A DNA stretch of 64,000 nucleotides from an uncultured Planctomycetaceae bacterium (GCA_963813715.1 CAWFAK010000017.1:288001-352000), one strand, 5' to 3'. Shown: positions 7,040 to 42,094, counted from the stretch's first letter. A program made the numbers and translations. Notes: a model not told the origin generated them from the sequence alone.

Positions 7040-7150
7040 TTTCAATTCAATCCCGTCCCAATTCAGCTTTCTCTGTAACTCCTGATTGAAGTTGGCTTTC
7101 GAGATTGGCCCGACTTTCGAGTCCCAGTCCGGCGTTCAGTCCCGTCCCCA
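7040..7150. repeat. Approx. 110-bp direct repeat, copy 1 (GTCCC-rich; motif-rich zone spans about 6998-7230)
   Basis: tttcaattcaatcccgtcccaattcagct.tctc.gtaactcctga...tttcgagtccca...agtcccgtccc is repeated at 7582-7691. Confidence 0.85.
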
Positions 7151-7284
7151 TCTTTCAGTCCGAGTCCCAATGTTCGTGTCCCAGTCCCCGACGTTGGAGT
7201 CCCGTCCCGATTTCGATTCAATCCGGTCCCATTCGCCGCGGCCCTCTTTGGTCGAGGCCGGGAATTGGCAGGTAAGGTTCGGCA

Positions 7285-7530
7285 TCAGTCGGTCATCCGA
7301 TGCCAGAGCGCGAGATACCAGCCCACGAACGCATTAGTCTTTGTTGACCTGTCGCAGAAAAAACGAAGTGGGCTGTACGTCACTCGCAGTGCCGCTTGGA
7401 GCCGCGGGTAGTCACCGCATCGCCGATAAATGCAATCCAACGGACCGACCGCGAGCGGATACATCGCAATCACGAGCGCGAGTCCCAACCCAAACCACGC
7501 CCGCGACCGTTTGCTCGGCTCATCGCTCAT
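7285..7530 (-). CDS. Small hypothetical membrane protein (81 aa)
   Basis: MSDEPSKRSRAW, a hydrophobic helix with YPLAVGP, then YSPL...WYLALW; lies between the two repeat copies. Confidence 0.6.
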   Translation of the reverse strand: MSDEPSKRSRAWFGLGLALVIAMYPLAVGPLDCIYRRCGDYPRLQAALRVTYSPLRFFCDRSTKTNAFVGWYLALWHRMTD

Positions 7531-7581
7531 GCCGACATCCCAGCGGGGACAATTTCCAACTCGAGCCGCCCGAGTCCCAAT

Positions 7582-7691
7582 TTTCAATTCAATCCCGTCC
7601 CAATTCAGCTATCTCCGTAACTCCTGAGCGAACGCGGCATTGGAGTGTTCCCGAGTTTCGAGTCCCAATACTGCATTCGAGTCCCGTCCCA
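7582..7691. repeat. Approx. 110-bp direct repeat, copy 2
   Basis: Aligns with 7040-7150; the first 46 nt differ at 2 positions. Confidence 0.85.
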
Positions 7692-8065
7692 CTATTAGCG
7701 TCCCGTTGGTGAAGTCCCGTCCCAATCTCGGACGCTCAACCGGCCATTCTGTTCGCCGTCAGGGTTGGACAGAGTCTGGACAGCACGAGCTGGACGGACG
7801 CCGAATTCTCCGCACACGGCACTCGGAGCGACTTCCGAGTGCGCACCAAGATCCATTGTGCACGAACCGGCTTTGCCAGCCAGATCAGTTTTCCAACCGC
7901 GTAGAAACAACTTCCGAAAGTCCAACCGTGGTCGTGGGGAACGTCTTGGTCTCCCCAATTCGGTAATGTCTGTCGAAAATCCAAGTGATATGCCGCCTCG
8001 GCCGGCGCCTGTTGGTTGGCAATCACCACGAAACAGGAGTCAGCCGATGGCCATGATGATCGCGG

Positions 8066-8347
8066 TTGAGCGCCACGAGAGTGTCCGATTCCGAGGTTCC
8101 CTCGACGACCCCCGCCCCGAGTACCTGGCACATGATTGGCGGAACTTTGTTGGGCGGCGTGGGGGTCGGTTCGGTGGCCGTCATCGATGCTTTGCTGCTG
8201 GACCTGGCCCGCAGTCCGGCTCGGTTCTCGATCGTCGCGGAGCTGCGGCGCTCCGTTGCGTCGCCCGTCCTGGCGTACTTCGTGGTGATCGGCTCGTTAC
8301 TGGGCTCGCTTTTCGGCTTAGCTTATCGGCAGTCTGTCGAGTCTTAG
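8066..8347 (+). CDS. Small hypothetical membrane protein (2 TM)
   Basis: Two hydrophobic segments (HMIGGTLLGGVGVGSVAVIDALLL; VLAYFVVIGSLLGSLFGLAY). Confidence 0.45.
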   Translation: MSATRVSDSEVPSTTPAPSTWHMIGGTLLGGVGVGSVAVIDALLLDLARSPARFSIVAELRRSVASPVLAYFVVIGSLLGSLFGLAYRQSVES

Positions 8348-8369
8348 CGTGACGGCTAGCGTCGGGTTT

Positions 8370-8469
8370 CCGTAGGGCAAGCTGCCAGCTTGCCCGCCGA
8401 GCACGACTCCCGCGATGCCACGGCCCATTGAAAGCAAAGTTATGGACAAGCTGGCAGCTTGTCCTACGG
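8370..8469. repeat. GTAG-type REP doublet (REPIN)
   Basis: GTAGGGCAAGCTGCCAGCTTGCCC ... GGACAAGCTGGCAGCTTGTCCTAC inverted pair; each arm is itself palindromic. Confidence 0.9.
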
Positions 8470-9466
8470 CCTCGCGAACTCGTTGGTTGATTCATTCCCG
8501 GCAAGCGGCGGGTGCGAGGCAGCCGAATCTTCGCCTTTCTCGCCGGCGTCAAGCGGCTCGAGCGACTTCTGCCAAAAGCCAGCCTCTGCCTTCAGGTCGT
8601 GCTCTTTGGCGAATTCGACAAGTGACTTGTAGCGCTTGATCGGGTCGGCGTGGCACGCCCACCAGACCTTTTGCACGCACTCGGGGCACAGCCACATCGG
8701 CACAGGTCCGCTTCGTCCAATGAGTTCGATCCGTTCATCGTGCACTCGTAGGCGGTGCAGTGCTGGATGCCCAGCATGTGCCCCGTCTCGTGGACGGCGA
8801 CGAGAAAAGTGCGACGGTAAACCAGCCCGCTCATTTGCGGATTTTCCAGATTGCCGTAGCGGGCGATTGACCAGACGCCGACGCGGTCCGAGAGACTCGC
8901 TTGGCCGAAAACGAAATTCCAGCCCTCGCCGGGCCACAGGTCGGACGTCGTCAATCCGAGCACCGCCACGGCATCCTTTGGCCGTCGCGGTTTGAGCACC
9001 TGGTCGAGCACGTAGCTTGTGAGAATCTGTTCGCGAATGCCTTCGATGCGACGCGCTTTTGGCGGAATGACGTCGAGGCTGCAGCGGCGCAGAACCTTGG
9101 TGCGCAGTTGTAGTAGCGCCGGCAGGTCGGCCGTGGCTTTCGTCAATCGGCACGGTTCCGCCGGCGTGAATTCGCCGATCGGTTGCACGTAGATCGTCGT
9201 ACGACGCTGCGTGGGGCGGTTCGGATTCGATCGCCGATATTCGTCGGCCGTCTGTCCGTTCTCATGATGATTCGCCAGCCAATCCTGCGGGCCTGGTGCG
9301 GTCTTGGTCCGATGCAGCGGGACCAGTTTTTCCGCGGCGATCCGAATGCGTTCGGCATCTGCTCGAACATTGCCGCGGCGTCGGTCGAGAGTCCGTGGCC
9401 GCTGATCAGCCCGAGGCAACAGGCTCCCGCCCAGAAGCAGACCCGTCTGCGCATGATCGTCGTCAT
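8464..9466 (-). CDS. Archaemetzincin-like zinc metallopeptidase (M54), secreted; several frameshifts
   Basis: HETGHMLGIQHCTAYECTMNGSNSLDEAD then LCPECVQK; DLWPGEGWNFVFGQASL; signal-like N-terminus in another frame. Confidence 0.85.
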
Positions 9467-9536
9467 GGGGTTGCCCTGCCCTTGCCTCAAGCCTCACTTG
9501 ATCGCGATCCGTCCTTTGAATGCTACGCGAAACCCC

Positions 9537-9633
9537 GTAGGCAAGCTGCCAGCTTGCCCCCTGATCTCCAGTTCCCTAGTCCAAAGGTATCTGAAACCCG
9601 AGACGGGAGGGGCAAGCTGGCAGTTTGCCCTAC
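9537..9633. repeat. GTAG-type REP doublet (REPIN), same family as 8370-8469
   Basis: GTAGGCAAGCTGCCAGCTTGCCCC ... GGGGCAAGCTGGCAGTTTGCCCTAC. Confidence 0.9.
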
Positions 9634-9819
9634 AGGCGGACACCGAACCCGCAAGGACCCTGGTAAGACTTCCGCGCACCGGCGCGGGGGTTTGAAGCAA
9701 AGCCGGGTCGCCCACTGTCGCGTTTTATCGGCCCCTCTTTTGGATACTCCGAGACACCTGATTTGTTCACGCCTTTTTTCCCCGAAAGCATCGCGCATGA
9801 CGGTTTTTGTGCACTCAGC

Positions 9820-10470
9820 TCAGGGCGTCGGCGAGTCCTCAGGTTCGTTCGGTGCGGTGGACTTGGGCGTTGGTTCGCTCGCGGTTTTCGCGATGGGGTG
9901 AAAGATCGTAAACCGACCGCACTCCAGGTCGAGCAGTCGAATTTGATCGCCGGAGACGGCCTTTCGGCCGTTGGCTCCCTGGTGATAAATGTTGAGCACC
10001 CTCCCGCCCGCGAGGACTTGAGCGACGATGGCGGTGTGGTGCCGCGCGGTCATGGTATAGGTGCTCCCGTCGTCGAGCGAACCGGTCAAAGTTGTGCGGG
10101 TGAATTGGATGATGTCGCCCGGGCGGACGTCTTTGACGTCGCCCTTCGTCTTGAATTCGGTGCCGACACGCTCCAACACGAAGACCAGCTCGCCCCAGTT
10201 GAAATCGTCCGACCGTCCCTGAGGCGAATCGGGCTTGGCGGCATGCGGGCCGTGCAGCCTTGCCCCGGCCGACTGCAATGCCGCACCGACAAACGTCGTG
10301 CAGGAGCCATTGCCCACCCGCTTGCCCTGCTGCTGCTTGCAGTATTCGAGGATGCGATCCGCCACTGCCGGCGGATCATCGGCTCGACAAGCCGCAAAAC
10401 CGCACGTGGCCGCAAGAATCACGGCCAAAAAGAAAGCGCGTCCAACCGTGCGACACCTTGGCGGCATCAC
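9820..10470 (-). CDS. Secreted protein with putative papain-like (CHAP/NlpC-P60-like) Cys-His fold
   Basis: Signal peptide; GKRVGNGSCTTFV, VRPGDIIQF, HHTAIV, IYHQ. Confidence 0.6.
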   Translation of the reverse strand: MMPPRCRTVGRAFFLAVILAATCGFAACRADDPPAVADRILEYCKQQQGKRVGNGSCTTFVGAALQSAGARLHGPHAAKPDSPQGRSDDFNWGELVFVLERVGTEFKTKGDVKDVRPGDIIQFTRTTLTGSLDDGSTYTMTARHHTAIVAQVLAGGRVLNIYHQGANGRKAVSGDQIRLLDLECGRFTIFHPIAKTASEPTPKSTAPNEPEDSPTP

Positions 10471-10590
10471 TTTCTCCGTGAGTTGAACCTTCGCCTCAGT
10501 CTACCTGGCCGCGCACGTCGCGGACAATCAATCATTGGGCAGCGACGAGGAGCGATGCGATCGCGGAGTCCGCGCGAAGCTGTGTCCCGT

Positions 10591-11841
10591 TCAGCGATGC
10601 ACCGTTGCGGCGAAGTTCGTCCACAGCGTGCCGAGCGGCGCATGGGCGTAGTCTTCGAACAGTTCTTCGGTATAGGCTCCGATCGCCAGTCGCACGTTGA
10701 GCTTTTCGATGACGTGCGGGCCGTGCGTCCGTTCGACCCAGTCGAGAAACGCGGCGGCCGTTCCGTACCCGTCTCGATACGTTTTCTTGCGGTCGATCTT
10801 GAACGGTTTTTCCGGCTCAAACTCGAAGTAGCGGACATAATCGGCGACCCCTTCGCCGATCCAGAAATCGTCACGCCCTTCGATTCCGGGTAGTTCTGCA
10901 CGACGTGCGTCAGTTCGTGAATCACCATGCCGATGTCTTCGGGATGTTTTTTCACCCAATTGGCGCTAATGGTAATTTCCCCCTGTTGCGCGAACGTGTA
11001 GGCCACCGTCTTGATGGGGTCCTTGAAATGGATCGTGATCGTCCGCGCGGGAGGATGGCCGACGGGGTAGAGAATGTCGTAGATGATTGCGTACCACTCT
11101 TCGCAGAGCTGTTTGGCTCCGGCCGCCCACCGCGCTGCCTCGTGCAGCTCGTGGAGATCGAGGACGATTTTCGGGACCACCGGTTTGCGGTCCGCCGCCC
11201 AGTGGCCCGCGTAGAGCCGCGTGAGGTCGGCGAAACGCTTCGGCACCGTTTTGTTCCCCGCCGCGAATTTTGAGCGAATCCGAGGAGAGGCGGACAGTGT
11301 AATCGCGCTTGGCGTCCTTGAGTTCGACGTACTCACTCGTGCGGCCTGTTTCGCGGAACACATTGATGCCGTCGAAATTGCGCTCGACCCAGACCGCGGC
11401 CTCGGATGATGCGCCTGTGCCGCCAGGCTCTTTGTTTTGCGCCCGGAACGTGCCGGCCGGCGACTGCCAATCGAGCCGCGTGTCGGGATCAGTCCATGAG
11501 CCCTCTGACACCCGCGCAAACTTGGGGAGTCTTTTCACGCCCCCCTTCCCGCCGCGGAGGAGCACTTTGTGCGGATAGAGCCGCACGGTGTAGTGCCGCA
11601 CCGGGTCGAGCAGCTCGACGAAGATGGGGTTACGCGCGACTTCGACAAACGTGTGGCTTGTCTTGCGAGACTGTTCGACCCAGGTGAGCGAACGCCGGAT
11701 CGACCCGTTGCCGTACTCCCAGCACTGGCGATCGGCGGTTTGGGCAGGGGCGGCGGCACCCATCTCGCTGAGCACGATGAGCGCGGCCAGTGCGATCGCG
11801 ATCCGAACTAAAGGGGACGGCCGGTTGTATCGTGTCGACAT
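10591..11841 (-). CDS. Basic secretory protein (BSP)-family metallopeptidase with two N-terminal repeat modules; frameshifts near 11245 and 10880
   Basis: Signal peptide; ITISANW...DIGMVIHELTHVVQNY (HExxH); WIGEGVADYVRY; GYGTAAAFLDWV. Confidence 0.8.
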
Positions 11842-12060
11842 GCCCGAGGCGGCTCAATCGCTGGCTGGAGCGTACGAATATCCTATCCTCAACCGGGCCA
11901 CGGGGCGCTTGCGGCTCTTTCACAAAGAGGCAGACTTCACTGCCTTCGAGCAAATCCTGGGCGAGGCGCGCGCGAGTGCCGCTACGAATCCTGGCCTACG
12001 TGGTGATGAGCAACCACTGGCACTTTGTTGTTTTACCTCGCCAGAATCAGGGTGAAGCAA
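11840..12060 (+). mobile_element. Truncated, frameshifted IS200-like/REP-associated tyrosine transposase (RAYT) remnant
   Basis: MP...YPILNRATGRLRLFHKEADFTAFEQILGEARA / RVPLRILAYVVMSNHWHFVVLPR: N-terminus and HUH motif of Y1 transposases; catalytic Tyr region absent. Confidence 0.8.
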
Positions 12061-12291
12061 TCGAACCCGATCGCGACTGGCCGAATGATGGCAGTTGGGG
12101 CAAGGCCTAGGGGGGTCTCATCCAAATCACGTACTGATCGCCGCGGTCGTTTTCACGAAGTCGCACCGACAACAGGCGACCTTGCTGCTTCGCCGCCTCG
12201 CGCAGCCGCGGTGTCGACGTCAATCCCCAGCTCTGTCGTGTTGGCATTCAGGGCACGCTGACTCGAAACTTTTGCCCATGGCACCAACGAC

Positions 12292-13184
12292 TCAACCACA
12301 ATCGCGCAGCGGCCCTCGAAGCAGGGGATCGGTCACCGCCATGATCGTCAATCTCTTTTGACTGATCGACGAAGATTTTGAATCACCAACCCAAACTGCG
12401 CTCGGCTGCAATCTGATTTCGGGGCGGAAATGCCAGGCCACCGGGATTTGCAGTAGCGGCCCGTCCGCTTTTTCCTGGCTTATTCTAACCACATCGAGCG
12501 TGGCACGGTTGGCGGCTTGGCTCCTGATCGTTCCTTTGACCGTCTCCTCCGATGGGCCGGAAACCACGGAGGTAATTTGGATCTCATTCGACTTTGAGGT
12601 CACGCGTACAGGTTGACGATGTTTACGAAATTTGACGACGACGCTGAAGTCAGCGACGCCGTCGTGATCCAGCTCGCCACTAACTGTTGCAGGATCGGAC
12701 CAAACGACGGGATCAACTTTGCCGTGAATCTGGACCTCCCAGACTCGGCCCGGCAGATCGGGCGATGTGAGTTTGACATTCTTCGCAAGCTCGGCGGGCG
12801 TGCTTGGCACCGTCACCACGAATGTGAGCGACACTTTGTCGTGCGGCAGAAGAACGGAATCGCTGAGCTGTGCCGCGACGCAACCGCAACTGGCGGTCGG
12901 CCTGTTCATCCGAACGCTCTGGTCGGAATTGTTGAGAACCGCGACCTCGACCGTCCGTTTCTCGCCGGCGTTCAGCTCACCTAAGTCAACTGTTGCCGGG
13001 TTCAAAGCAAGGGAGACCTTGCCGGAAGAGAGCGGAACCACCGGGGATGATTCTCCGGTGCCCACGCCCCCCAGGTCACGGCGTAAAGCCGGGCGCCACC
13101 CACGACGACGACTGCTGCAATCAGCCCAAGCAGAAGCCGATCGCCCCTCAGGTATCGGGCGACTTCCAATAAGCGCTGCTTCAT
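12292..13184 (-). CDS. DUF1573 domain-containing membrane-anchored protein (frameshift near 13070; the 3' end may extend toward about 12110)
   Basis: N-terminal TM (MKQRLL...LLLGLIAAVVVVGG) in one frame; VDLGEL...LNNSDQSVRMNRPTASCGCVAAQLSDSVLLP Ig-like DUF1573 signature in another. Confidence 0.75.
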
Positions 13185-13198
13185 CGCGCAGCTCGTCT

Positions 13199-14125
13199 TC
13201 AGAAATAGTAAACCGTGACATCGCGACGACGACGCGTCGTTGAGATGCTCGCCAATTGAATCGGCTGCCATTTCTTGGCCGTATCATTGTACCGGAAGCG
13301 AACAAAATACGGCTCCGCAGCCTCGTAGTGCTCGGCATCAAGCTTGATGATCAACTCCACGTCCGCAATCAACACTGACCGCCCATTCCGCAGTGCCGCC
13401 TCGAGATCCCCTGTTTCCGCCACGAAGCTTGGAGCGAACGTCTGAATTGCCAGAAAAACGTTGTACAAGTCGTGGACGGGCGACGAAGGATCGGTCTTGG
13501 AAGGGAGATTCAGGACCTTCTCCATCGCGACTCCACGAGCATCCCAAATCTGCCGACAGCACTGACTGGGAATGAGGGACTGCCAGTGGGTCGGTCCGGC
13601 ACTATTGGCTTTGGATTCACGCGCAAAGACTTCCCTGTCTGACAGCGCGCTCACGTCCTTCTGACCCAATCTGCCCAGGAATTGTTCGTCTGCCTTGCGT
13701 CGCTTCGGATCCAGCCTGTTCCCGCGCTCCTGCATATAACCAAAAACCGCGTCAGCGGTGCCCTCCGAATACGCGTTCAGAAATCCCGTGATCGCCGTTT
13801 CCAGGTCTCGTATTTGCTCGGGCGCCAAGTCGCTCAAGGAAACGGCGGCTGATGGGATGGGGCAAGCCAAGCAATTATGCGCTGGGATGTCGCGTACGGC
13901 TCCCGCCACGTCTCTCGACGCGAGAGGGACCGCTACACTCGAGTTCCATTCCGCGAGGAGCCCAGCCAGCCGACGCTGTCGCTGGGAATCACTCTCGATG
14001 ATGGCAGGATCGACTGACTGTGCTGCCGAGGCGTGACGATCCCTCCAGGCCCGTAGAATCACCCACTCGCCCGCGCCGAGTGCGGCCAGCAGAACAACGA
14101 TGGCGACCGTACGGAACCGTTTCAC
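13199..14125 (-). CDS. Hypothetical protein with N-terminal membrane anchor/signal
   Basis: Long ORF; probable GTG start (VKRFRTVAIVVLLAALGAGEWVIL); stop is 15 nt from the next start. Confidence 0.7.
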   Translation of the reverse strand: MKRFRTVAIVVLLAALGAGEWVILRAWRDRHASAAQSVDPAIIESDSQRQRRLAGLLAEWNSSVAVPLASRDVAGAVRDIPAHNCLACPIPSAAVSLSDLAPEQIRDLETAITGFLNAYSEGTADAVFGYMQERGNRLDPKRRKADEQFLGRLGQKDVSALSDREVFARESKANSAGPTHWQSLIPSQCCRQIWDARGVAMEKVLNLPSKTDPSSPVHDLYNVFLAIQTFAPSFVAETGDLEAALRNGRSVLIADVELIIKLDAEHYEAAEPYFVRFRYNDTAKKWQPIQLASISTTRRRRDVTVYYF

Positions 14126-14463
14126 GAGGTCCGCCTTGATTCGCGTTCGGCACCGCCCGTGATGGCTCGGCCACCCTAGGCAGCTGCTGATTTCCCGGCT
14201 GTCGCAATATCGTTGGGACCGCCAGCCCGAAGTCGACAACCTCGCAAGGTCAAAAAATGACCCAGTGAGATCCGACCCGGCGCCAGTCAAACTGTTTCGG
14301 CGCACCGTCCGCTAGTTCGCAGAAGTGATGCCCTGCCAACCGCTACCATGTGCCCGTCAACTAATGTGCACGGCCGAGCGGTCAGAGAACCACAAGATGG
14401 GATTGAGCTGCGATATTTCGGACGCAAACAAGCCAATCGGCCAGTGCCACGCAGTCGCCCTAG

Positions 14464-14790
14464 TTATCGGTCAACGACAATAAAGCACTGGTAACAATAA
14501 ACATCGTCCCCGTAGTCATCGGGATCGTAGTAGCAGCATGAGCACTGATAAGGGCAGCCGTAGCACACGTAGATGTAACCGTTATTGGTGCACGTACAGC
14601 AGGCAAAATTGCCGCAAGTCTCGTAGGTGCAACCACAGGGACCGGCCGGCACGCCAAGTCCGCACGTCGAGCGCACAGACGCCGGGCTCGCCCCGCCCGA
14701 CAGAGCCAACTTGGGGATAACAAAGGCGAACACAAACAAAGCAACGGCTGCACAAGCGATGTTAGACCGTGTGAGATACTTTTTTAGCAC
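14464..14790 (-). CDS. Secreted cysteine-rich miniprotein (108 aa; 14 Cys in the predicted mature part)
   Basis: GGAGG RBS before GTG 14790; KKY+hydrophobic signal peptide; mature CGLGVPAGPCGCTYETCGNFACCTCTNNGYIYVCYGCPYQCSCCYYDPDDYGDDVYCYQCF. Confidence 0.8.
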   Translation of the reverse strand: MLKKYLTRSNIACAAVALFVFAFVIPKLALSGGASPASVRSTCGLGVPAGPCGCTYETCGNFACCTCTNNGYIYVCYGCPYQCSCCYYDPDDYGDDVYCYQCFIVVDR

Positions 14791-15127
14791 GGCAAGTTCC
14801 TCCAAAAGAGCTATGAACTTGAATTGTGCGACCAACAAGTCGCGACTTTTGTGCTTTTACTATCTCAACAACTATCGCCTCAAATCAGCAGGGATCGACG
14901 GGCTTCACCGCTGTCCCAAGCGCGTCCCATAGCTAGCGCGCATGATTAGACCAACTGGCCATCCGTGCGTCAACGATGTCGAATGTAAGCTGCAGGCAGC
15001 ATGTGACAGACGGCCAACCGCACCTCGCCTTTATTGCGCGCTACTCCGTTCCCTTTGCTTCGCGCAAATGCCGGCGGCCCGGCGAATTGCCGGGCCTCGG
15101 TTGACTCGGGTTCGAACCCCCGGCTGC

Positions 15128-17242
<2,115 letters not shown>

Positions 17243-17561
17243 CGATCTCCCCTTCGTCTGCGTACAGATTGTCCGTCAACGCGCGATACGAACGAATCTG
17301 GCTGCCTGCGAGACTGGCACAGGAATGGTCCGATTCCCGGCCCGCCCAGACTTAGACTCTGATCCCCAGCATCCATCCGAGCGAAATAAGAAATAAGGCG
17401 GCAGCCAACGTCCTCGTCGGCCATTCTACTACCGATTTGCCGACCCAACCAGATCCAAGATTGCCGGGACCGGCCACGGTACACTGCGCGAGATTTAACC
17501 CGGCGGGCAAGCCGTTTGCCCCTTGGCGGCTCGAGGACCCGGTTTCCCGATCGACCGGCGC

Positions 17562-17594
17562 AAAAAAGAGAGACCGGCAATTGCCGGCCTCTCT
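17562..17594 (-). terminator. Rho-independent terminator downstream of 17680-18318
   Basis: Minus strand AGAGAGGCCGGCAATTGCCGGTCTCTCTTTTTT: GC stem plus U tract. Confidence 0.7.
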
Positions 17595-17679
17595 CGGAAG
17601 CGTTGACCTGCTGAATTCCGCCTCGCCTTCGCGAGAAGAACTGTTTCAGGCCCGCTTGAGGGCCACCCTGCTCCGTTTG

Positions 17680-18318: not shown

Positions 18319-18666
18319 AACACGCCTCCTCTGTTATCTGCTCCCGGCCGCCTTGCTGCCGCCGGTTTTTTAGGCCCACCCTTTATTGTTTCACGCTTTC
18401 GTTTTCACTGCTTCGTTTTTCACCTCGTCGGTTGACGTGGCTGAAAGAGGGAATTGCAAATCCCGCGCCCGCGGACCAAAACAAGCGGCAAAAGTGTGAC
18501 CGCTGGCGGACGATTTGTCGTACACACGAGGAGGCTCGCCGCCGCGGTGAAGAGCGCGCGGGGAAGGCGCGAGCGCCAGAAGTGACATCGTGAGCGGGAG
18601 AACAGCGAAGCGCGCCGGAAGCCTATCGTCACGCCTGAGCGCCTTCGGTCTCAAATTCGGCGGCGC

Positions 18667-30323: not shown

Positions 30324-30353
30324 GCACCCGCCAGCTGACGCAGGCGGCTCGCC
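30324..30353. repeat. GGCGAG-type REP arm
   Basis: Minus strand GGCGAGCCGCCTGCGTCAGCTGGCGGGTG hairpin; related arm at 32380-32407. Confidence 0.55.
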
Positions 30354-30369
30354 GGGTGAGCGCGCGGCC

Positions 30370-32312: not shown

Positions 32313-32379
32313 GGGGTCGATTCTCCAGAGGTTGAGCGTCCAGCATATCGCACAGGCCGGGTCAGTTGGCGCCAAAATG

Positions 32380-32407
32380 GGCGAGCGGCGGGTGTCAGCC
32401 CGCCGGT
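32380..32407. repeat. GGCGAG-type REP arm between the two CocE genes
   Basis: GGCGAGCGGCGGGTGTCAGCCCGCCGGT hairpin. Confidence 0.55.
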
Positions 32408-32452
32408 TCGTCTTTCCGCGAACCAGCGACAAGTTTGCTCGGCCCCGCCCCG

Positions 32453-34444
32453 TCAACGCGAAACCGTCCCGGTTCCGCTCAGCGACGGCATCACCATCAG
32501 CGTCACCCGCGACGCACGATCGTGCGAGCGATAGACGCGTTCGGTCGCCTTGTGGTACGTGCTCGGGTCGGCGCTGATAGATGTCGACGAAGCTCTGCGG
32601 GTTGCGATCGATCAGCGGAAACCAGCTCGACTGCACCTGCACCATGATCCGGTGGCCGGTGCGAAACGTGTGGCAGATGTCCTGCATCTTGAACTTGATC
32701 TCGGCCGGCTTGCCGGGCTCGAAGGCCTCCGGCTTTTCGAAGCTGTTGCGGTATTTGCCGCGGAAAGCGTCTCCGCGAACCAGTTGCTCGTAGCCGCCCA
32801 TGTGGGTGCCGGAGGGGTTCACCTTGGGATCGGGCGCGTTGTTCGGATAGACGTCGACCAGCTTGACGACCCAGTCCGAGTCGGTCCCCGACGTCGAGAC
32901 GTTGATGTCGACGTTAACTGGCCCCACGACGGAAACGTCCTGCGCCAGCGGCTCGGTCTCGTAATCCAGCACGTCGGGTCGTCGCGAGGCAAACCGCTGA
33001 TCGGCCGTCATGTACTCGCGGGTCATCCCGGTTCCAATCATTTCCAAGAAAGGCACCGGGTGCGACGGGTCGCTGACATATTCGTCGGACTCGTCGGCAC
33101 TCTTCTCGGTCGGCGCCGTCGTCGATAGGCCGCCGTTCGGCGCCGAAATAGTAGGAGCGCGCCTCCGCCTGCCGGTGGCGGCCAAGTCTCGAACTTGTGC
33201 CAGGTATTGCCGCCGGTCTCGAAGATCCAAGTCTTGGCCTCCTCGAATTTGCCCGTGTGCTTGAGATGGTGCTCGAAGAAGGGAAACTCGATTTTCGACT
33301 GGTAGTATTCGGCCGTCGGCGTGTTGAACGTGACGTCGCCCAAGCGCGAGCCTTCGCCGCGATACCAGCCGCCGTGCACCCACGGACCCATCACCAGATG
33401 GCTGTCGGTCGAGGGGCTGTTCTTGGCGAGGTTGCGATAAACCTCGAGTGCGCCGAACAGGTTTTCCGCGTCGTACCAGCCACCGACGGTGAGCACGGCC
33501 GGCTTGATGTGCTTGAGGTGCGGCCGCAGGTTCCGCGCCTTCCACCACTCGTCGTAATTGGCGTGCTGACAGACTTCTTTGAGGAACGCCGTTTCGCCCT
33601 TGAAGTAGCGATCGCTAGCCTTGCTGAGCGGTCCCATGTGCAGGAAGAAGTTGTAGCCGTCGGGAGTGCCAAAATCGAACTTCGCGCCATATTCCTTCAC
33701 CGGCTTGGGGCGCGGCCGGTCGAACCAGGGCAGGAAGCTGATCATGTGGGCGATTTGCAGCGCTCCGTTGTGGTGCCAGTCGTCTCCCATGAACCAATCG
33801 GTGACCGGAGCCTGCGGCGACGCGGCCACCAGGGCTGGATGAGCGTCGATCATGCCGGCTGCCGTGTAAAAGCCCGGATACGAAATGCCCCACATGCCGA
33901 CGCGGCCGTTGTTGTTTGGCACGTGCTTGATCAGCCAGTCGATCGTGTCGTAGGTGTCGCTTGATTCGTCGATGTCGGTCGAGCCGTTCTTGTTTTCGAT
34001 GTAGGGACGCATGTTGACGAACGTCCCCTCCGACATGAACCGCCCGCGCACGTCCTGTTCGACGAAGATGTAGCCCGACCTTTCGAACAGCTCCGACGGT
34101 CCGATGTGGCCGTTGTACTGGTCGGTCCCGTATGGCCGGCAGCTGTAGGGAGTCCGCGTGAGCAGGATCGGATACTTCTGGCTGCGAGCCTTGGGGATGT
34201 AGATCGCGGTGAAGAGCTTCACCCCGTCGCGCATCGGGATTTGATACTCGAACTTCGTGTAGTGCGACTTGACGTTGTATGCCGGCTTGTCGCTCGTGGT
34301 CCGTTTTTCGGTGGTGGTCTTCCGACGCTGGGCCCAGGCGGGCGTCGCGACGGTGGCGACGAGCGAGAGAACCAGGGCAAAGACCGAGGCGATGTGACGA
34401 ACGTTTTCTGGCAGGCGGGGCAGATTCAGGCGGGCGGACGGCAT
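32453..34444 (-). CDS. CocE/NonD family hydrolase, copy B; frameshifts near 33160 and 32575
   Basis: Same motifs as copy A (GISYPGFY, DDWHHNGA, GPWVHGGW, DQRFASRRPDV); signal peptide ending PAWA-Q. Confidence 0.92.
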
Positions 34445-34715
34445 CGGGCGAGGGTCTCCGGCGAGGGATCCAAACGGGGGTAAACCCAGCATAAAAAGCG
34501 GCGGTTCGATTGTCGTTGGTCGCCAATCGCTTTTTTTGCGGCTGATGGGGCAAACGATCGAGCTCTATCCCGATTTGTCGCGAAAAGCCGGGAATGACTC
34601 ACGGAGCCTTAATGGATGGGCGGGAAACTGGTGTTGCGGTTTCACCGCTTACCGGCAAAATACGTCGCCTTTCCCGAATGGAACCGGCCGCGGCACCCCG
34701 AATCACGGACGATTC

Positions 34716-36230
34716 ATGAGCACCAACACGCTTTCTCGCCCGACTGTCGGCCGGCTTCGCGCCGAGTTGGAGCGCGGGTTGTCGTCGGTCAACCAACGAC
34801 CGCGCTTGTGGCTGGGGTTGTTGGTGCTGCTCTTGATCGCCCAGGTTCGTCCCTGGTGGATTCCGCAACCCGACAGCCGCTGCTACTTGTCGATGGCCCG
34901 CAGCCTGGCCGAACAGGGACAAATGCTGAACCTTGGGCGTGAACATCTCTGGTACTTCCCGGGCTATCCGCTGTTGTTGACCCCGCTGTATTGGGTGAGC
35001 GAGCAGCCGGACTGGCTGATTTCGGCTTTTCAGTGGGTGGCGGCCGCCCTGTTGATGGTCGGCGTTTACCAGTGGGCCCGCCGGATCGTGCCGCAATGGG
35101 CCGTTTGGATCGCCGCCGTAAGCGCGGTGAACTCGGGCGTCTGGTTTCACGCGGCCCGCGTGCTGAGCGAAGTTCCCTTTATGTGCGCGCTCGTCTGGTC
35201 GGCCAACGCGGGGATCGCCGCGTACCGCAGCCGGACGTTATCGCGGACGATTGTGCTCACCATCGTGGCCGCACTGTTGGTGGCGGTGACGGCCATCATT
35301 CGGCCGGCGGGACTGATGCTGGCCGTCGGCTTTGGGCTGAGCCTCGGCTGGCAAGCGTTGCGCCAGAGGAAGACGTGCCAGCGGACGACGTGGCTGCGGG
35401 CGGTCGCGATCACGCTGGCGCTGGGAGTGCCGGCTTCAATCGGCGTCGTCACCTTCATGAAGATCGAGCAGTCGACCGCGACCGAGGAGTCGGCTCGCAC
35501 TTACTTGAGCAACTTCGGCGATTCGGCCCGCAGTCCGCTCGCCTCGTATCTCGAGGGCCTGCGGCTGGCGATTCGCGACAGCGGACGCGTCGTGATCCCC
35601 GGCATGTTCAAGGCCTACAACGAGACCGGCTGGCTCGACCCCAATCTCCTCATTTATGTGCCGGCCTGCCTGGTGCTGACGTGGGCCTGGTGGCGGCTGA
35701 CGCGGGAGACGGCCGATCCCCTGCTGCTCGGCGTTCCCTTTTACGTGCTGTTGCACGTCGTCTATCCGTACGAGGCCGGTGCGAGGTTTTTCGTGCCGCT
35801 GTTGCCGATCTTCTTGGCCAGCCTGGCGTTTTTGATCAAGCCGGGTGAGCGGCGGCGCGTGTTTGCGGTGGCTGCGTTTTGCGCGGCCCACATGTTGATC
35901 GCCGTGGTCTATTGGCTGGCCATCGACGCGCCCCGCGCTGCGGCCGAGGCCCGCCGCGGAGAGGAAATCGCCACGATCAGCCAACGGATCAAGGCCGACA
36001 ACCGTCACGTGGCGGCCGTCGATCTCGATGGCAATGACCTGCTGATGCTCGAATTGCAGCTCGACCGCCAGGTGCCACTGCGCGAGAAGACCTACATGGC
36101 CAACGACGAGTGGCTGGTGTCCGACCGGCGGCTCCAACCGGCGGGCCCCTATCACTTGTCGGCGACGACCGATTCGTTCGCGCTGTCACGCCGCGCCGTC
36201 GGCGGGCAGAACGCGCCGCTGGCGCAGTAG
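34716..36230 (+). CDS. Polytopic membrane protein, GT-C (ArnT/PMT-like) glycosyltransferase
   Basis: PDSRCYLSMARSL, PGYPLLL, VLSEVPF, IRPAG, ARFFVPLLP; about 11 TM segments. Confidence 0.7.
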   Translation: MSTNTLSRPTVGRLRAELERGLSSVNQRPRLWLGLLVLLLIAQVRPWWIPQPDSRCYLSMARSLAEQGQMLNLGREHLWYFPGYPLLLTPLYWVSEQPDWLISAFQWVAAALLMVGVYQWARRIVPQWAVWIAAVSAVNSGVWFHAARVLSEVPFMCALVWSANAGIAAYRSRTLSRTIVLTIVAALLVAVTAIIRPAGLMLAVGFGLSLGWQALRQRKTCQRTTWLRAVAITLALGVPASIGVVTFMKIEQSTATEESARTYLSNFGDSARSPLASYLEGLRLAIRDSGRVVIPGMFKAYNETGWLDPNLLIYVPACLVLTWAWWRLTRETADPLLLGVPFYVLLHVVYPYEAGARFFVPLLPIFLASLAFLIKPGERRRVFAVAAFCAAHMLIAVVYWLAIDAPRAAAEARRGEEIATISQRIKADNRHVAAVDLDGNDLLMLELQLDRQVPLREKTYMANDEWLVSDRRLQPAGPYHLSATTDSFALSRRAVGGQNAPLAQ

Positions 36231-36284
36231 TCGTCGGTGTCCGTGTCATGCGGACGCGCGATGCCGGCTGTGGCAGTCCGGCCG

Positions 36285-38972
36285 TTATTCCGTGACTTCG
36301 GCGGGGATCACCGGGTGGGCCGCCAGGAAGACCGGGCAGTGCGCGTGGGTCAGCACGTAATTCATTTCGGAGCCGCACAGCCGGCCCCTTTCCAGCGGGC
36401 GTTCCTGCGGCAGCGGCAAGAACGATTAACTCGTAGTGCCCGTCCTTCGCCAGACGCACCACGTCCTGTCCATAGGCGGCACCGAACGAGTCGACTTTGA
36501 TCTCGCGGCCGAGCGTGCGGGCTCGTTCCAGGTCGCGTTGCAACACGCCGTTGGTCGACGCGTTCGATTCTTCCTGCGGCGGGATGGCCGCCACGTCGAG
36601 GACGACCTTGCGATCGAGCATCGTCAGCACCCAAAGGAAGAGGTCGCTGCTGACGGGCGTGGCGTCGTGAATCAGGAGGACTTTGTCGACACCCACCCCG
36701 GCCGCGCGCAAGTCGGCAACCGATCGTGCGTGCCGCTCGCCGAACTTGGGAATGCGATTCCCGCCTTCGACGTCAAAATAAACGTCCCGGTTGCGGCTCA
36801 AGACCCGTACCGTCAGCCCGGGCGGCCGGCCGTCGTGCAGACTGATCCAATAGAACGAGATCTGGTCGAGCTGCTCCTCGGCCGTGAACTTGTTCGACGC
36901 GCCGACTACCACTTCCTGGGCCTGGATCTCCTTGGCCACCCGCAAAATGGCGTGCAGCGGGCTGTTGGTCGGCACGATCAGCGGACGGACCTTTTTGCCC
37001 ACTTTTTCTGCCCGCTCGACAACCGCGGTCATCAGCTGCTGATCGTAGGTATCCAGGTCGAGTCGGCCGGTGCCCGTCTCCCCGCCGGGAACCGTCATTT
37101 TCGCCGTCATCACCACGACGTCGGTCGTGTTGGGGTCGCTCTCGGCCAGCGCCTTCTCCAGCATGAACAAGTTGTGCGGCGAGCGGATGGCCACCAGCTT
37201 CCGATATGGCTTGGTCAGCCCAAAGCTCTCCTGTTTGATTTCGGGTAGCACCTGCTGGTTGAACTGCTCGAGATGCACGTGCTTGGTGCCGCGGCGTTTC
37301 TCGTTCACCGCCTCGGTCACGACGAAGATCGTGAGGAACACCGCGCTGAAGGCGGCCCCGCTGATCGTGGCGACTTCCTTCGTCAGCAGGTTGGCGATCG
37401 CAGACGCCAACACGACCACCGAGATGATGCCGAGCCCGATCGGCAGCTCGTACTTGCCGAACTGAATGTTGAAGGGCACCTTGAATTCGCGCGGCGTATG
37501 GTCCTTGAAGCGCAGCACCACCATCGACAGCGTCTTGAACGTGAAGCTCCAAACGACGCCAAAGGCATACGCTTCGCCCAGCAGAATGAAGTCGCCCCGG
37601 CTGGCAACGATCGTAAACAGCTGCAAGCCGACGATCAGCCACAGGATCCGCGAACTCGTGCCGTATCGCACGTGCGGCTTGAGAAACCAGTCGGGCAGCA
37701 CGCCGTCTTCGGCCACGCGGTTGAGCACACCGTTGGAGCCGATGATCGAGGTGTTGACCGCTCCCGACAGGATCAAGAAGCCGACGACCACCACGAAAGC
37801 GTTGAGCAACAGCTTGAGCGGCACCGGTCCCACCATATGCATCGCCAGGCCGCCGATAAAGTTGTCGTAATATTGGCCCATCCGCTCGCCTTCGGGGATC
37901 AGGATCACGGCCAGAAAGCTGACCGAGCCCGTGAGCAGTACGCTGTAGACAAAGACGATAAAGGCCGCCTTTTTGAAATTCTTGAGCTTGGGGGATTCGA
38001 CCTCCCGATAGACCTGCGCAAGCGTCTCCTCGCCGCTCATCGCCAGGATCGAATGCCCGAAGGCGATCACGACTCCCGCCAAGCCGATCAAAGTCAGCCA
38101 GGCGGCCGAGCCGGAGTTCCGCAGGGGCTCGGCAATCGAGGGGAAGCGCCCAGGAAGCCCAGTGGATCTTCCTGGCGGCCGGTCACGGGGTTCATCTTGG
38201 GAACCCGCTCGCCCGTGTCGGTGACGGTGAATTTGGGATTGAGGTCGGGGTGCCAGCTCGGCACCTTGTTGGCTGCCCCGTTCGTCGCCAGCGTCACTCC
38301 GCTCCAAGCCAGGATCACCAAACCCATGATGGTGGTGGCGATCATGATCTTGAGCGCCTTGTCGCTCGATTCATGGATCCCCAGCATGTTCTGGCGGAAA
38401 AAATAGAGGGTGATCACGCAGGCGATCGCGACGGCCCCCCAGCCTTTGATGTCGTGTTGCAGCCCGACCGGGATGGGGACGTGCAGGTAGATGGTGAGCG
38501 CGTCGATCCCCAGCCCGCAGATGTACTGCCCCGCCGAGACGCCGCTAATGGGCCCGGTGAGAATGTAGTCGAAGAGGAGCGCGGAGACGGAGAGCTTGGC
38601 GACGAAGCCCCCCATCGCCTCCTTGACGACGCGATAAACGCCGCCGCGCACAAACAACGCGCTGGACTCGATATAGACGGAGCGCATCGCGTAACTGAAC
38701 AGCAGTACCCCCAAGATGAACCATGGGGCCGCTGGTCCGATGGCGCTCTCGACGATCGCCCCGATGTAGTAGGCCGTGCTCGCCAGGTCGCAGAGTACGA
38801 CCGCCGCCGTCCGCCAGTACGAAATGAACGTAAACGTCACGCTGCTGATGACGATGACTTGGGCAGCGCGGATGGCCTTGGCGGTGGTGGTCGAAAGCCC
38901 GGCCGAAGGAGCACCATTGGGAGTAGACAATGAGGGGGAAGACGAGGCCGGACCGGTCGTTTCGTTCGACAC
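36285..38972 (-). CDS. APC-family permease with C-terminal USP-like domains; frameshifts near 38140 and 36390
   Basis: DLASTAYY, GGVYRVVKE, LAMSGEET, LGEAYAFG; soluble C-terminus ILRVAKEIQAQEVVVGAS and NYVLTHAHCPVFL. Confidence 0.85.
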
Positions 38973-39371
38973 GAGAAGTTGGCGCCCTCTTTACTGGTGC
39001 GATGGCGGCCGCCGATTCGCGGTTGCAAAATGCCTGTGCGGCATCCGGCGGGTTGGCGATTTGCCCGGCAGGCCGCGGGCGGAATAGTCGCCCGCAATTG
39101 GCAAACGGGCAATTCTCCCGAAAATGAGCGGATGTCGTCAAGGAGGAGGCCTTTGGTCCGGTTTCGCGGGATGCGGGCAAAAGTCCCGGAACTCACGGAG
39201 GTCGCCGCGTGTTCTTATTCTCAACCGGCCACTCTGGTTGGACTGTGCCTGCGCGACGTCCTTGCTTGTTCGCCCGCTCCGACCATTAAATAATCACAAA
39301 CCCGCCCCGTCCGGCGGGATCGGCCTTTCGAGATCGGACGATCTCCGTTCAACGGCCTGGACTTGCGATTC

Positions 39372-40761
39372 ATGGCTCACGCTGGACGCGACCTTGGACC
39401 TCCGGCGCTTTCTCGCAGCCTGAATCTGCCGCAGGCCATTTCGCTGAACATCGCCAATATGGTCGGTGTCGGGCCGTTCATCACCATTCCCCTGATGTTG
39501 GCGGCCATGCCGGGGCCGCAGGTCATTTGGGCCTGGGTGGTGGGCGGATTGCTGGTATTGTGCGACGGCCTGGTCTGGAGCGAGTTGGGGGCCGCGCTGC
39601 CTGGCAGCGGCGGGTCGTACCACTTTCTCAAAGAGATTTACGGGCGACTCGACCCGACCTGGGGACGGCTGATCCCGTTCCTCTTCGTCTGGCAGTTCCT
39701 GTTTAGCGGCACGTGCGAGACGGCCTCCGCCTACATCGGGGGGCTCAAATATCTCGAGTATGCGATTCCCGGGCTCGAGGAGACGCTCGCTCGCTGGCAC
39801 GTTCCCGGCGGCACGCACACGCTGGCGGCCGCCCTCAGTGTCGCGGTGACGATCCTCTTGTGCCGCAACATTCGCGTGCTCGGCCAACTGAGCGTGTTTT
39901 TCTGCGCGGGGATCCTCGGGGCCCTGCTCCTGGTGATCGTTTCCGGCCTGCCCGATCTCGACTGGCGCCTGTTGCACGTCCCAGCCGGCACCTACGACGT
40001 GCAAAACGCTCCCCACTTTGCTTGGGGATTGGGGGCGGCGATGACGATCGCCATCTACAACTATTTCGGCTACTACAACATCTGCTTCCTCGGAGACGAG
40101 GTTAAAGACCCCGGCAAGACGATTCCGCGGGCCGTCATCAGCTCCGTTTGGATGATCGGGATCCTCTATATCCTGATGACCGTCGCCATTATCGGCGTGA
40201 TCCCTTGGCGGGAGGCGGCCGAGTCCGAGGCGGTCGCCGCCAACTTGGTGTCCCTGGTTTTCGGCCCGCATTTGGCGACCGCGTTTGCCTGGCTAGTGGT
40301 GTGGACGGCGCTGGCCGGGCGTGTTTGCCATGTCGCTGGGCTATTCGCGGATTCCGTTCGCGGCCGCCCGCAACGGCGACTTCTTTCGGGTCTTCGGCAC
40401 ACTGCACGCCGGCGGCTTTCCGGTGATCTCGATCATCTGCCTGGGAGCACTGACGACGGCCGTTTGCTATCTGCAGCTTGGCGATGTGGTCGATGCGGCC
40501 GTCGCCGTCCGCATCCTGGTGCAGTTTGTCGGCCAGATTGTGGGGCTGCATATTCTCCGTACGACGCGACCCGACGCCCGCTTGCCCTTCCGCATGCGGC
40601 TTTACCCGATTCCCAGCTTCATCGCTTTAGTTGGCTGGCTGTTTGTGCTGGCAACGCAAAAGCCGTTGGTCCTGGCGATTACGGTCGGAGTCACGCTGGC
40701 CGGCGTGCCGGCGTTCTGGGTTTGGAAAGTGGTGGAGAGACGCCGCATCGCCGTGCCCTAA
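39372..40761 (+). CDS. APC-family amino acid permease; frameshift near 40320
   Basis: NMVGVGPF, WSELGAALPGSGGSYHFL, YFGYYNICFLGDEVKDPGKTIPRA, YSRIPFAAA. Confidence 0.9.
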
Positions 40762-40825
40762 AGCCGGGACGCAAACCGGAGGGGCCGAGCGCACCCGCAC
40801 AGCAAACCGAACCGGGAGAAGAATC

Positions 40826-41547
40826 ATGGACCGCGTGCAACAATTGGCCGATCTGCTGCAGTCGATGACGGCCGTCGACCTCGCGCCGCGGTTGGAGCGG
40901 GGCATGCCGAGATATCCGGCCCACCCGCACCTGATCATCGACCCGACCGTCACGCACGAGCGTCATGGCTATTACTGCCAGTCACTGTCGATGCCCGAAC
41001 ACATCGGTTGCCACGTCAACGCGCCGGCACACACGGTCCCCAAACTGATGGATTCAACCGTCGATACTCTGCCCGTCGATCAACTTGTTGGTCCGGCCGT
41101 CGTCTACGACTTCTCCCAGCGCGACCTGCAGCCAGGCCAGACGCTGACGGCCGACGACTTTCTGGAGTACGAGCGCGATCACGGCGTGCAGGCGGGAGCG
41201 GGCGACATGCCGCTGGTCTGCTTCGGCTGGCACCGCCGGCACTGGAGTTCACCCGCTTTCTACGAGCGCAACCAGCCCGGGAATGGACGAAAAAGTGACG
41301 GTGCTGTTCGCCGAGCGGCAAAGTCCGCGCAGTGGGAGCCGACACGATCGCCTGCGAGATTCCGTTCGTCAAAGGCGTGGCGGGCGACGCGCCCGGCCAC
41401 CGCAAGCATTGGCTGCCCAACGGCATCTTGATCGTGGAGTGCCTGGCCCAACTCGAAAAGCTGCCGTCGCGCGTGTTCCTGGTCGCCGCGCCGCTGCCGA
41501 TTGAAAACGGCTCGGGCTCGCCGCTAAGGCCGATCGCGTATTTCTGA
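40826..41547 (+). CDS. Cyclase family (kynurenine formamidase-like) metal hydrolase; frameshifts near 41280-41315
   Basis: EHIGCHVNAPAH (HxGTHxDAPxH variant), GADT, HWLPNGILIVECL, PLPIENGSGSPLRPIA. Confidence 0.85.
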
Positions 41548-41587
41548 CCAAGCCCCGAAGGCACAAAGAAAGACGCAGAAATTGGCT

Positions 41588-42094
41588 GACTCGACTGGTC
41601 GACGATTACCGAGCCAAGTCCGGGTGACCGGGGTGGAGCTGTCAGCTCGCTCCCAGGTCCGCAACGCCGGTCTCCCTGTTCAATGAGAGTGTCCGGACCG
41701 GATTCAGACTTCGTCCTAAACCGCATCTGCTGCAGCTCTTAACACCGGTCTAAATCCGAATTGTGAAGATTAGACCGGACCGGACTCGACTGGTCGCGAC
41801 TCGAGTCATTCGGTCGAGCCGTCAGGCTCGCCCCCGGGTCCGCGATCGCCGGTCTCCTTGTTCAAATGAAAGTGTCCGGACCGGATTCAGACTTCGTCAT
41901 AAACCGCGTCTGCTGCAGCTCTTAACCCCGGTCTAAATCCGAATTGTGAAGATTAGACCGGACCGGACCTGACTCGGCGTTTTGTGCTTATAGTCGAGCC
42001 CAGCACCGTCTGGCTGGGGTCGAGCCAGCAGATTCGCCCCCAGGGTCCGCGACCGCCGGTCCTCGTTGTTCAAATGAGAGTGTCCGGACCGGAC
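41588..42094. repeat. Tandem non-coding repeat array: two full units plus one partial, spaced 183 and 208 bp
   Basis: 41688-41785 vs 41871-41968 match at 95/98 nt; third partial copy ends at agtgtccggaccggac (42079-42094); internal hairpin CCGGTCTAAATC-N11-GATTAGACCGG. Confidence 0.95.

Follow-up and report, generated by a model that had tools for sequence, protein, structure and literature searches.

A shared 5′ module links two dissimilar intergenic repeat clusters of an uncultured Planctomycetaceae bacterium

This study concerns two clusters of short repeats in a stretch of 64,000 nucleotides (the window) from an uncultured Planctomycetaceae bacterium. The window is G000:C17:288001-352000, that is, part of contig C17 of an assembly of 7.49 Mb in 18 contigs with 63% G+C; its completeness is 82.6%. 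Cluster A lies at 7.0-7.7 kb and cluster B at 41.7-42.0 kb, both in long intergenic gaps, and their flavours are named GTCCC and GGACC, respectively, after the doubled pentamer motif. We find that the 5′ ends of the two clusters are truly related, the shared part being the doubled pentamer motif (a 10-mer) followed by a 19-base core, ATTCAG-STTTCK-YCN-YAAM. As to what the units are, we lean towards the view that both clusters belong to one modular non-coding repeat family, found in this genus only among the genomes searched, which has likely spread by recombination and copying and is likely without a dedicated function in the cell. Rather than as a recombinase site, the family probably has to be seen as repeat DNA, selfish or structural, similar in type to BOX and NIME.

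A first-pass annotation, made from the sequence alone, had proposed that the two clusters share one architecture with fixed spacing. Its 5′ pattern, TCCSGWCCSR-ATTCAG-N9-TAA-N19-TTV, indeed matches the window at exactly four positions (7051, 7593, 41692 and 41875, all on the plus strand), with TAA at 7076, 7618, 41717 and 41900 as claimed, while 100 shuffles gave no match. The copies within each cluster are also true repeats, as had been said: 7040-7103 and 7582-7645 are 86% alike (64 nt), and 41682-41796 and 41865-41979 are 93% alike (115 nt). The downstream module that had been described, ARTCCSAAT-N10-AGWCCSGWCCS, is present in three of the four copies and is missing from the one at 7051. 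The fixed TAA and N19-TT do not hold as family features, because the third GTCCC copy, A3 (C17:26927-27033), reads ATTTAG...CAA; several units in other species also have CAA. Neither is the spacing the same in the two clusters, the distance at which the 10-mer recurs being +89 in A1-A3 (9-10 of 10 letters) and +82 in GGACC units; in a fourth GTCCC unit (C17:540349) it recurs at +81.

It is important to point out that the likeness does not extend over the whole unit. Local alignment of whole units of cluster A with those of cluster B gives z values of -0.5 to -1.1 against 500 dinucleotide shuffles, i.e. below the shuffle mean, and in the register of the first-pass annotation they agree at 34-36 of 102 letters. 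With an nhmmer model made for the GGACC family, 100 rows were returned at E <= 10, none of them in 7.0-7.7 kb. The core was examined by means of a weight matrix built on the 19 bases after the 10-mer in 24 GGACC units only, with which both strands of the genome were scanned at a threshold of 12 bits. Among 15 million positions, 47 places score above 12 bits, of which 24 are the family itself. Four of the 23 others are preceded by TCC[CA]GTCCCA, and these are all four GTCCC units. The best of the 23 is C17:540349, with 26.9 bits and preceded by AATCCAGTCCCA, and A1 (7061), A2 (7603) and A3 (C17:26945) reach 16.2, 15.5 and 13.9 bits, each after AATCCCGTCCCA. The G002 ortholog of A2 reads CTTCAGGTTTCGACTTAAC, which is identical to a GGACC unit at 16 of 19 positions. 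The recovery of the GTCCC units by the matrix means that the architecture is real for the doubled pentamer and the core and not for the remainder. The idea of one diversified family with a changing motif and a constant frame is supported.

One option considered was that two repeat families without any relationship look alike by chance, the pattern having been fitted afterwards. This would account for the insignificant whole-unit alignment, for the absence of cross-over in the nhmmer model, for the failure of TAA, N19-TT and N10 in other copies and for the fact that AATTCA is a common linker in the GTCCC arrays (11 times before and five times after TCCCGTCCC). However, besides the matrix result, the same core follows both flavours in other species, where GAAAGTGTCC before the core is common to the two kinds of motif: it stands after GAAAGTGTCCCGTCCCAGGGAGTCCC(A/G) in G003 and G009 and after other GTCCC motifs in G006, and after GAAAGTGTCCGGACC(T/C)G in G007, G002 and G000. 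In G010, a gene start abuts the core directly. Furthermore, there is a sister type of the GGACC unit, in which a 12-bp hairpin with a variable loop replaces part of the core, and it sits inside GTCCC arrays at four loci, which means that the two flavours belong to one mosaic. Chance is thus refuted for the 5′ module and stands for the rest of the unit, and as an overall explanation it has very little likelihood. The downstream flavour of each unit equals the upstream one; this is found in all 24 GGACC units, in the four GTCCC units and in those eight of the 12 other-species units that have a GTCCC- or GGACC-type motif upstream.

The family is restricted to the genus. The core (<=3 mismatches) is found in 10 of 12 genus genomes at 1-9 copies each (G000 7, G002 4, G003 8, G004 3, G005 3, G006 9, G007 7, G009 6, G010 3 and G011 1), with 0-1 in the controls, and there are no matches in G001 and G008. 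In 79 genomes outside the genus, the 20 matches are near the background of 13 in the control. DNA of the GGACC unit occurs in three of 41 related genomes, with 35 matches in G000, 10 in G002 and two weak ones in G007, and GTCCCGTCCC is enriched in seven of the 12 genus genomes (363, 277, 557, 460, 440, 129 and 98 sites, controls 8-22) and neither in the remaining five nor in 29 genomes of other genera. The genus genomes rich in the GTCCC motif are G000, G002, G003, G006, G007, G009 and G010, and those poor in it are G001, G004, G005, G008 and G011.

G004 and G005 have one orthologous unit in the secE-nusG spacer of the tuf-secE-nusG-rplK cluster (G005 C2:250150-250220). This spacer was considered as an ancestral site and rejected: G000 has no unit there and the unit part was not found at that place in the other genomes, so the G004/G005 unit is just another copy.

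We now turn to the arrangement of the units. In G000, 24 full GGACC units are found at 11 loci, mostly two or three in tandem, ca 180-210 nt apart, and all units of each array are on one strand, head to tail and intergenic. Their best-conserved part of ca 100 nt consists of TCCGGACCGG, the core, ca 17 less-kept nucleotides, CTTAAC, the hairpin CCGGTCT(AA)...(TT)AGACCGG and ACCGG, while the flanking hairpin modules are much less conserved. The arrays are polar: at nine array ends, one to three full units are followed by a cut-off unit that stops at the 10-mer and then by a tail. Some 330 nt of this tail are common to seven of the nine ends, and those on C12 and at C7:791909 have its central part only. 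Matches of ca 700 nt between loci show that the whole composite recurs. The array of A1, like those of the B type, closes in a cut-off unit start that halts where the core would begin. The 80-nt tail piece at 42329-42409, some copies of which lie at contig ends in G003 and G009, may be an abundant repeat or the end of an element, and would then predate the GGACC units.

The GTCCC motif is abundant on its own. The 363 copies of GTCCCGTCCC in G000 compare with ca 50 expected from base composition (an estimate) and 12 for a reversed-pattern control, and 344 of them lie outside crude gene calls, the baseline being 25%. These calls come from a codon-usage caller with 75% coverage that misses real genes (for example the cyclase), and "outside genes" is hence approximate; a first gene caller and a "no long open reading frame (ORF)" baseline were dropped as too crude. 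The 549 sites of TCCCGTCCC form 211 clusters, and none of the 94 multi-site clusters mixes strands. With respect to the genes there is a slight excess of clusters between convergent ones (32, 22, 26 and 13 for the four arrangements). Two adjoining minisatellites built from the motif, AGTCCCGTCCCGGTGTCCC (19 nt, ca 15 copies) and GATCCCGTCCCAACC (15 nt, ca 12 copies), are located at C17:898.6-899.3 kb (stretch C17:898300-899500). Helical phasing of the motifs was considered and rejected, as there is no single period: the peaks are at 5, 14, 19 and 24 nt, those at 38 and 57 coming from the 19-nt satellite. Judging from its sequence, the G-rich strand of the GTCCC arrays may form a G-quadruplex.

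The GGACC units have a hairpin, present at the same place in 29 of 30 units with a perfect stem of 6-10 bp and a loop of 14-31 nt. Two units of G007 have CTCGGGTCC/GGACCCGAG and CGGTCC/GGACCG instead of CCGGTCT/AGACCGG, that is, both sides are changed and the pairs are kept. The fourth GTCCC unit has the stem GGACGGGAC/GTCCCGTCC, and A1-A3 have no such stem. The motif occurs three times per unit, in direct, inverted and direct orientation, which would explain why the flavour changes in step; the three copies would also allow two alternative pairings. At the foot of the hairpin, CTTAAC(C/T) stands before and ACCGG after, and a CGTC is located inside the 19-base core, ca 30 nt away.

These features raise the question of whether the units are structured RNA, either a small RNA or a cis-acting leader of small genes, in which pairing of the first with the second or of the second with the third motif copy would act as a switch. 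The compensatory changes between species would fit, as would the conservation of the core across the genus and the minus-strand RNA fold of one unit at -39 kcal/mol, and variants with AGACTT changed to AGGTTT would, on the plus strand, keep G-U pairing with GGGTCT. However, the consensus fold of 24 units keeps only one invariant hairpin, A1-A3 have none, and the units, which come and go between close relatives, keep to no particular gene. The Rfam check that had been proposed was also negative, with no match at gathering score in the window and none even at E <= 1 in either cluster region (Rfam 15). There are no sigma-70-like promoters in the two cluster regions, and a search by eye gave no fitting ECF-type -35/-10 boxes. 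The scan of both regions for intrinsic terminators yielded a single weak candidate, on the minus strand, which is below the number obtained from shuffles. In two metatranscriptome runs (X4 and X13), contigs cover the units and their flanks; the depth is low and resembles that in the DNA runs. Such contigs cannot show strand, ends or level, and DNA is possible in these libraries. On this basis the RNA explanation appears quite unlikely. The "skips" seen in joins of the contigs look like paralogous loci with shorter tails.

Another option considered was a small peptide, in the frame running from (ATG AAA) GTG TCC GGA to the TAA in CTTAAC, which is open in the inspected units. It was rejected by eye, because the third codon positions are not where the units vary and because the two flavours differ by 10 nt in the interval between GTG and the core.

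Between close relatives, units are gained and lost. G002, G003, G007 and G009 all lack the GGACC array of the window at the orthologous site, and the orthologous spacers, by match coordinates, measure ca 265 nt in G003 (sequence read), 334 nt in G007 and 117 nt in G009. Two blocks of G000 that contain arrays are 1.8 and 2.9 kb long, and what stands opposite them in G002 measures 123 and 185 bp; the C12 locus has no usable ortholog in G002 for such a filled/empty comparison. Cluster A does have a counterpart in G002, with 91-98% identity over 6900-7602, 40 of 58 letters over the A2 interior (7603-7660) and 62 of 76 over 7661-7735. At the site in G002 that is orthologous to the GGACC array (C5:73600-75200), an ORF resembling an FtsX/MacB-type ABC permease was noticed by eye.

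The 81-aa gene inside cluster A, of which 237 of 246 letters are conserved in G002, belongs to a family of membrane proteins of ca 80 aa with the N-terminus MSDEPK(K/R)RSR, one transmembrane helix and YPLSxGP. The family is found at at least 15 places in G000, often in tandem (among them C5:557843-558079, C5:558365-558616, C5:559287-559544, C7:437132-437349, C8:492998-493541, C15:100569-109014 and C5:1499119-1503092). It has no Pfam or NCBIfam match, and in the ESM Atlas it falls into clusters of 104-146 hypothetical proteins, with Planctomycetota as the commonest phylum. Several of these genes lie in islets bordered by units, and G000 and G002 do not have the same islet content.

The junction between the 10-mer and the core is a recurring breakpoint. 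Nine array ends stop there, and four cut-off units are then followed by an inverted-repeat element. At two G000 loci (C7:437079-437868 and C8:490762-493661), an element with the inverted ends GTA(G/A)TGGGG...CCCCATTAC sits exactly between TCCGGACCGG and ATTCAG, with TCCGGACCGG duplicated on both sides; it is non-autonomous and carries small genes. Metagenome contigs have perfect 29-base inverted ends, GTAATGGG...CCCATTAC, at the same junction of TCCGGACCGG and core, with loose ends at window positions 41692 and 41884. The 10-mer is thus a landing site of transposons. In the unit at C5:657876 and in that of G010, a gene-start module takes the place of the 10-mer. G000 also has 18 IS110-family matches, several of them adjoining repeats. 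Eight copies (ca 95% alike; C17:776022, C8:68506, C16:392791, C16:500932, C16:502828, C5:1086914, C5:1120156 and C5:1206966) have each inserted into a hairpin repeat (CCCTCACCCCGGCCC...GGGCGAGGG), at its loop, and GGGACGGGAC motifs flank this repeat. At C7:435643-436722, between two unit-bearing stretches, an IS110-family transposase is split over two frames, with DEDD_Tnp_IS110 and Transposase_20 on separate ORFs.

The specific example given in the first-pass annotation was that of integrase arm-type repeats around a dyad core, and we have accordingly considered the units as attachment or arm-type sites of an integron-like or integrase-like system that captures cassettes of small genes. Integron attC sites are non-coding elements of ca 60-140 nt standing, in variable arrays, between small genes that are poor in promoters, and there are also clusters of attC that lack an integrase. 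Like them, the repeated elements here lie between small genes, with small membrane-protein genes between units or arrays in four islets whose content differs between G000 and G002, and the breakpoints recur at one fixed junction. Integrons have one such site per cassette, in the orientation of the gene; here, by contrast, a gene is lacking between most neighbouring units, the genes that are present run antisense, and the inspected units have no RYYYAAC...GTTRRRY pair (the R''/R' core sites) around a long imperfect palindrome. At two loci, moreover, the small genes ride inside an element with its own inverted ends. For the integron integrase TIGR02249, none of eight matches in this 82.6% complete genome is over the cut-off (best 78 vs 265 bits). 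The association with tyrosine recombinases, which had been suggested as a check, is likewise not seen: of 11 Phage_integrase (PF00589) matches in G000 none is on C17, the contig of the window, and the nearest to any array or motif cluster is 3.8 kb away. The recombinase, integrase and target duplication tests being all negative, the proposal is very improbable. A CRISPR array was rejected too, the stretches between 10-mers being homologous to one another and not unrelated spacers.

The more general idea of the same annotation was that of protein binding: each unit would be a cluster of sites on which DNA-binding proteins that tell the flavours apart can dock (a transposase, a recombinase or a nucleoid protein, for example). 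The three motif copies would be three sites for one protein, and the element lineages would have co-evolved with different proteins. This would be consistent with the matched flavour within units, with GTCCGGAC, which on direct reading is a perfect palindrome, with the repeated breakpoint at the junction of 10-mer and core, and with the IS110-family matches adjoining repeats. There is also a weak excess of Y1_Tnp genes near the motif, with a TCCCGTCCC site no further than 2.5 kb from four of the eight matches (baseline 12%). However, the motifs near these genes, at 0.6-2.4 kb, are confined to one side, and no Y1 gene has them on both. Among candidate protein genes there is none that adjoins the units consistently, tyrosine recombinases are not associated with them, the motif spacing has no single period, and the compensatory hairpin changes, which pairing explains more simply, point rather to a single-strand structure. 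We regard docking sites as rather unlikely, though not negligible. In a joint version, an undescribed system for handling cassettes would work on the units: a flavour-specific protein or a single-strand fold would read the motif, present three times in each of them, and would cut and join at the junction of 10-mer and ATTCAG, building the polar arrays and moving the islets with neither an integron integrase nor a tyrosine recombinase; this, too, is rather improbable.

In the explanation that we prefer, that of a modular repeat family, a unit would run from the doubled pentamer motif through the 19-base core to a hairpin or a motif cluster of the same flavour. Units would multiply by unequal recombination between their own direct repeats, and copying between loci would be a second route of spread, as is thought for BOX, NIME and BIME. 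Arrays may end in a unit cut off at the 10-mer because the flanking direct repeats favour tandem amplification, and the flavour may be matched within a unit because the two hairpin arms have to remain complementary and because the neighbouring motif is what a local duplication copies. A dedicated function would be absent.

Several results weigh against this explanation. The tree of the 24 GGACC units is a star with two of 21 inner branches supported, and therefore local duplication and dispersal are not told apart. No target duplication was found at the edges of the two clean filled/empty comparisons between G000 and G002, and no transposase that would move the units was found. The core is kept, at few copies per genome, across species whose genes are only ca 70-90% identical at the DNA level, which looks like constraint and not drift. 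At five arrays of G000 and at one locus of G010, small genes in divergent orientation begin next to units, and the genes of the ca 80-aa family are antisense to the units in four of four islets; a regulatory role is therefore still conceivable. The RNA-library contigs neither support nor exclude transcription. The conserved core and the recurring junction thus keep the protein-site and RNA explanations alive.

The features of the two cluster regions are collected in Table 1. Cluster A is flanked by a family-2 glycosyltransferase gene and an M54-like peptidase gene, with an 81-codon ORF inside, and cluster B by a cyclase-family gene and an OprB-type porin gene. A 307-codon ORF (6162-7085, plus strand) without family match extends into cluster A and overlaps a conserved minus-strand gene; it is probably a false ORF typical of high-G+C DNA.

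Table 1. Features in and around the two repeat clusters (positions in the window).
Feature	Position	Strand	Remarks
GTCCC-type motif run ending in the first 10-mer of A1 (TCCCGTCCCA, 7051-7060)	7011..7060	+	direct reading; TRF 14-nt tandem 7011-7038
Unit A1, GTCCC flavour	7051..7149	+	10-mer 7051-7060, core 7061-7079 (ATTCAGCTTTCTCTGTAAC), interior, 10-mer again 7140-7149 (9/10 letters)
Oriented array of GTCCC/GTCCCGTCCC	7109..7231	+	repeat spacings 37, 20, 21 nt; 7200-7231 88% like 7029-7060
Cut-off unit start TTTCGATTCAATCCGGTCCCA	7211-7231	+	stops where core would begin; array end after A1
Gene, 81-aa small membrane protein (MSDEPSKRSR..YPLAVGP..)	7285..7530	-	between A1 and A2, antisense to units
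Unit A2, GTCCC flavour	7593..7691	+	10-mer 7593-7602, core 7603-7621, 10-mer again 7682-7691 (10/10); further motifs to ca 7727
Unit B1, GGACC flavour	41651..41821	+	hairpin modules, GAAAGTG-like lead; nhmmer E = 2.8e-44
Parts of unit B1		+	10-mer TCCGGACCGG 41692-41701; core 41702-41720; motif again 41774-41783
Hairpin of unit B1, CCGGTCTAA/TTAGACCGG	41745-41778	+	
Unit B2, GGACC flavour	41832..42011	+	10-mer 41875-41884, core 41885-41903, hairpin 41928-41961; nhmmer E = 4.9e-53
Terminal cut-off GGACC unit	42043..42093	+	ends at 10-mer TCCGGACCGG, where core would start; nhmmer model positions 7-57
Conserved non-coding tail after arrays	42094..42420	+	alignment of array ends; ca 700-nt matches between loci
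Variable 18-nt tandem in tail (CCGATCACCGAATGGCCG, 3.1 copies)	42105-42159		TRF; length differs between tails of different loci
80-nt tail piece, multi-copy in G003 and G009	42329-42409		ca 90% identity matches

Planctomycete genomes hold much unexplained intergenic DNA, and the present family is a clear and countable case of it. If it is selfish DNA only, it still marks variable spots of the genome and is useful for assembly, strain typing and annotation, because long false ORFs run through the repeats. One and the same junction is array end, insertion point of transposons and joint of the gene-start module, and if it were the site of an enzyme, this would be a new way of shuffling small genes.

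Finally, the family can be compared with known repeat systems; in the literature searched, we found no description of the repeats themselves. The boxB module of BOX elements measures ca 45 nt, and the units here 180-210 nt. In the account of BOX from S. pneumoniae and S. suis given in PMC3049150, these are boxA-(boxB)n-boxC composites of variable length that are regarded as parasitic. As with the units here, the elements described there are modular and non-coding, with fixed ends and a tandem middle module of variable number; they are intergenic, vary between strains by gain and loss of modules, are predicted to fold and cluster with other repeats, and related species have the same middle module between different end modules (PMC3049150). 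Fixed ends around a variable tandem middle are just what is found at the nine array ends. BOX differs in the terminal inverted repeats and target duplications that are reported for it (PMC3049150), whereas here there is no duplication at two filled/empty sites, and the change of motif in step at three places of the unit is not described for BOX in the cited part of that source. The host phylum is different as well, and the likeness is drawn from architecture and not from sequence comparison. Terminal inverted repeats, a mark of both MITE and BOX, are absent from the units, the sole inverted likeness being 11 of 13 letters, because the motif itself is near-palindromic.

In arrays of NIME, the intergenic mosaic elements of Neisseria, dRS3 repeats flank RS modules, so that a short repeat stands at each junction of modules of 50-200 nt in intergenic arrays, and this short repeat is also a landing or recombination site; we liken the two by description. 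The units here have a short repeat at each module junction in the same way. The modules of NIME are diverse, whereas those of one array here are copies of each other. NIME is named among the mosaic repeats in the parts of PMC3049150 and PMC3733652 cited here, and the latter describes dRS3 as a CGTC-tagged palindrome, while the junction motif here is a direct doubled pentamer.

The REP, BIME and REPIN sequences, as far as they are treated in the cited parts of PMC3733652, PMC2817692 and PMC3116915, resemble the family in being abundant, lineage-restricted intergenic hairpin repeats that are targets of insertion sequences, and Y1 transposase genes, the kind to which RAYT belongs, are present in G000 (eight matches). 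REPs are described as palindromes of 20-40 bp with a GTAG or CGTC tag that alternate in orientation in BIMEs (PMC3733652), whereas the units here are 70-200 nt long and run head to tail; neither tag is found at the foot of their hairpin, and alternating orientation is not seen (0 of 94 clusters mixed). Although the tag and the alternating orientation that define REP/BIME are lacking, and so is the target duplication of MITEs, on the analogy of architecture the best fit for the family would be an undescribed, genus-restricted variant of the BOX/NIME/BIME-like mosaic repeats.

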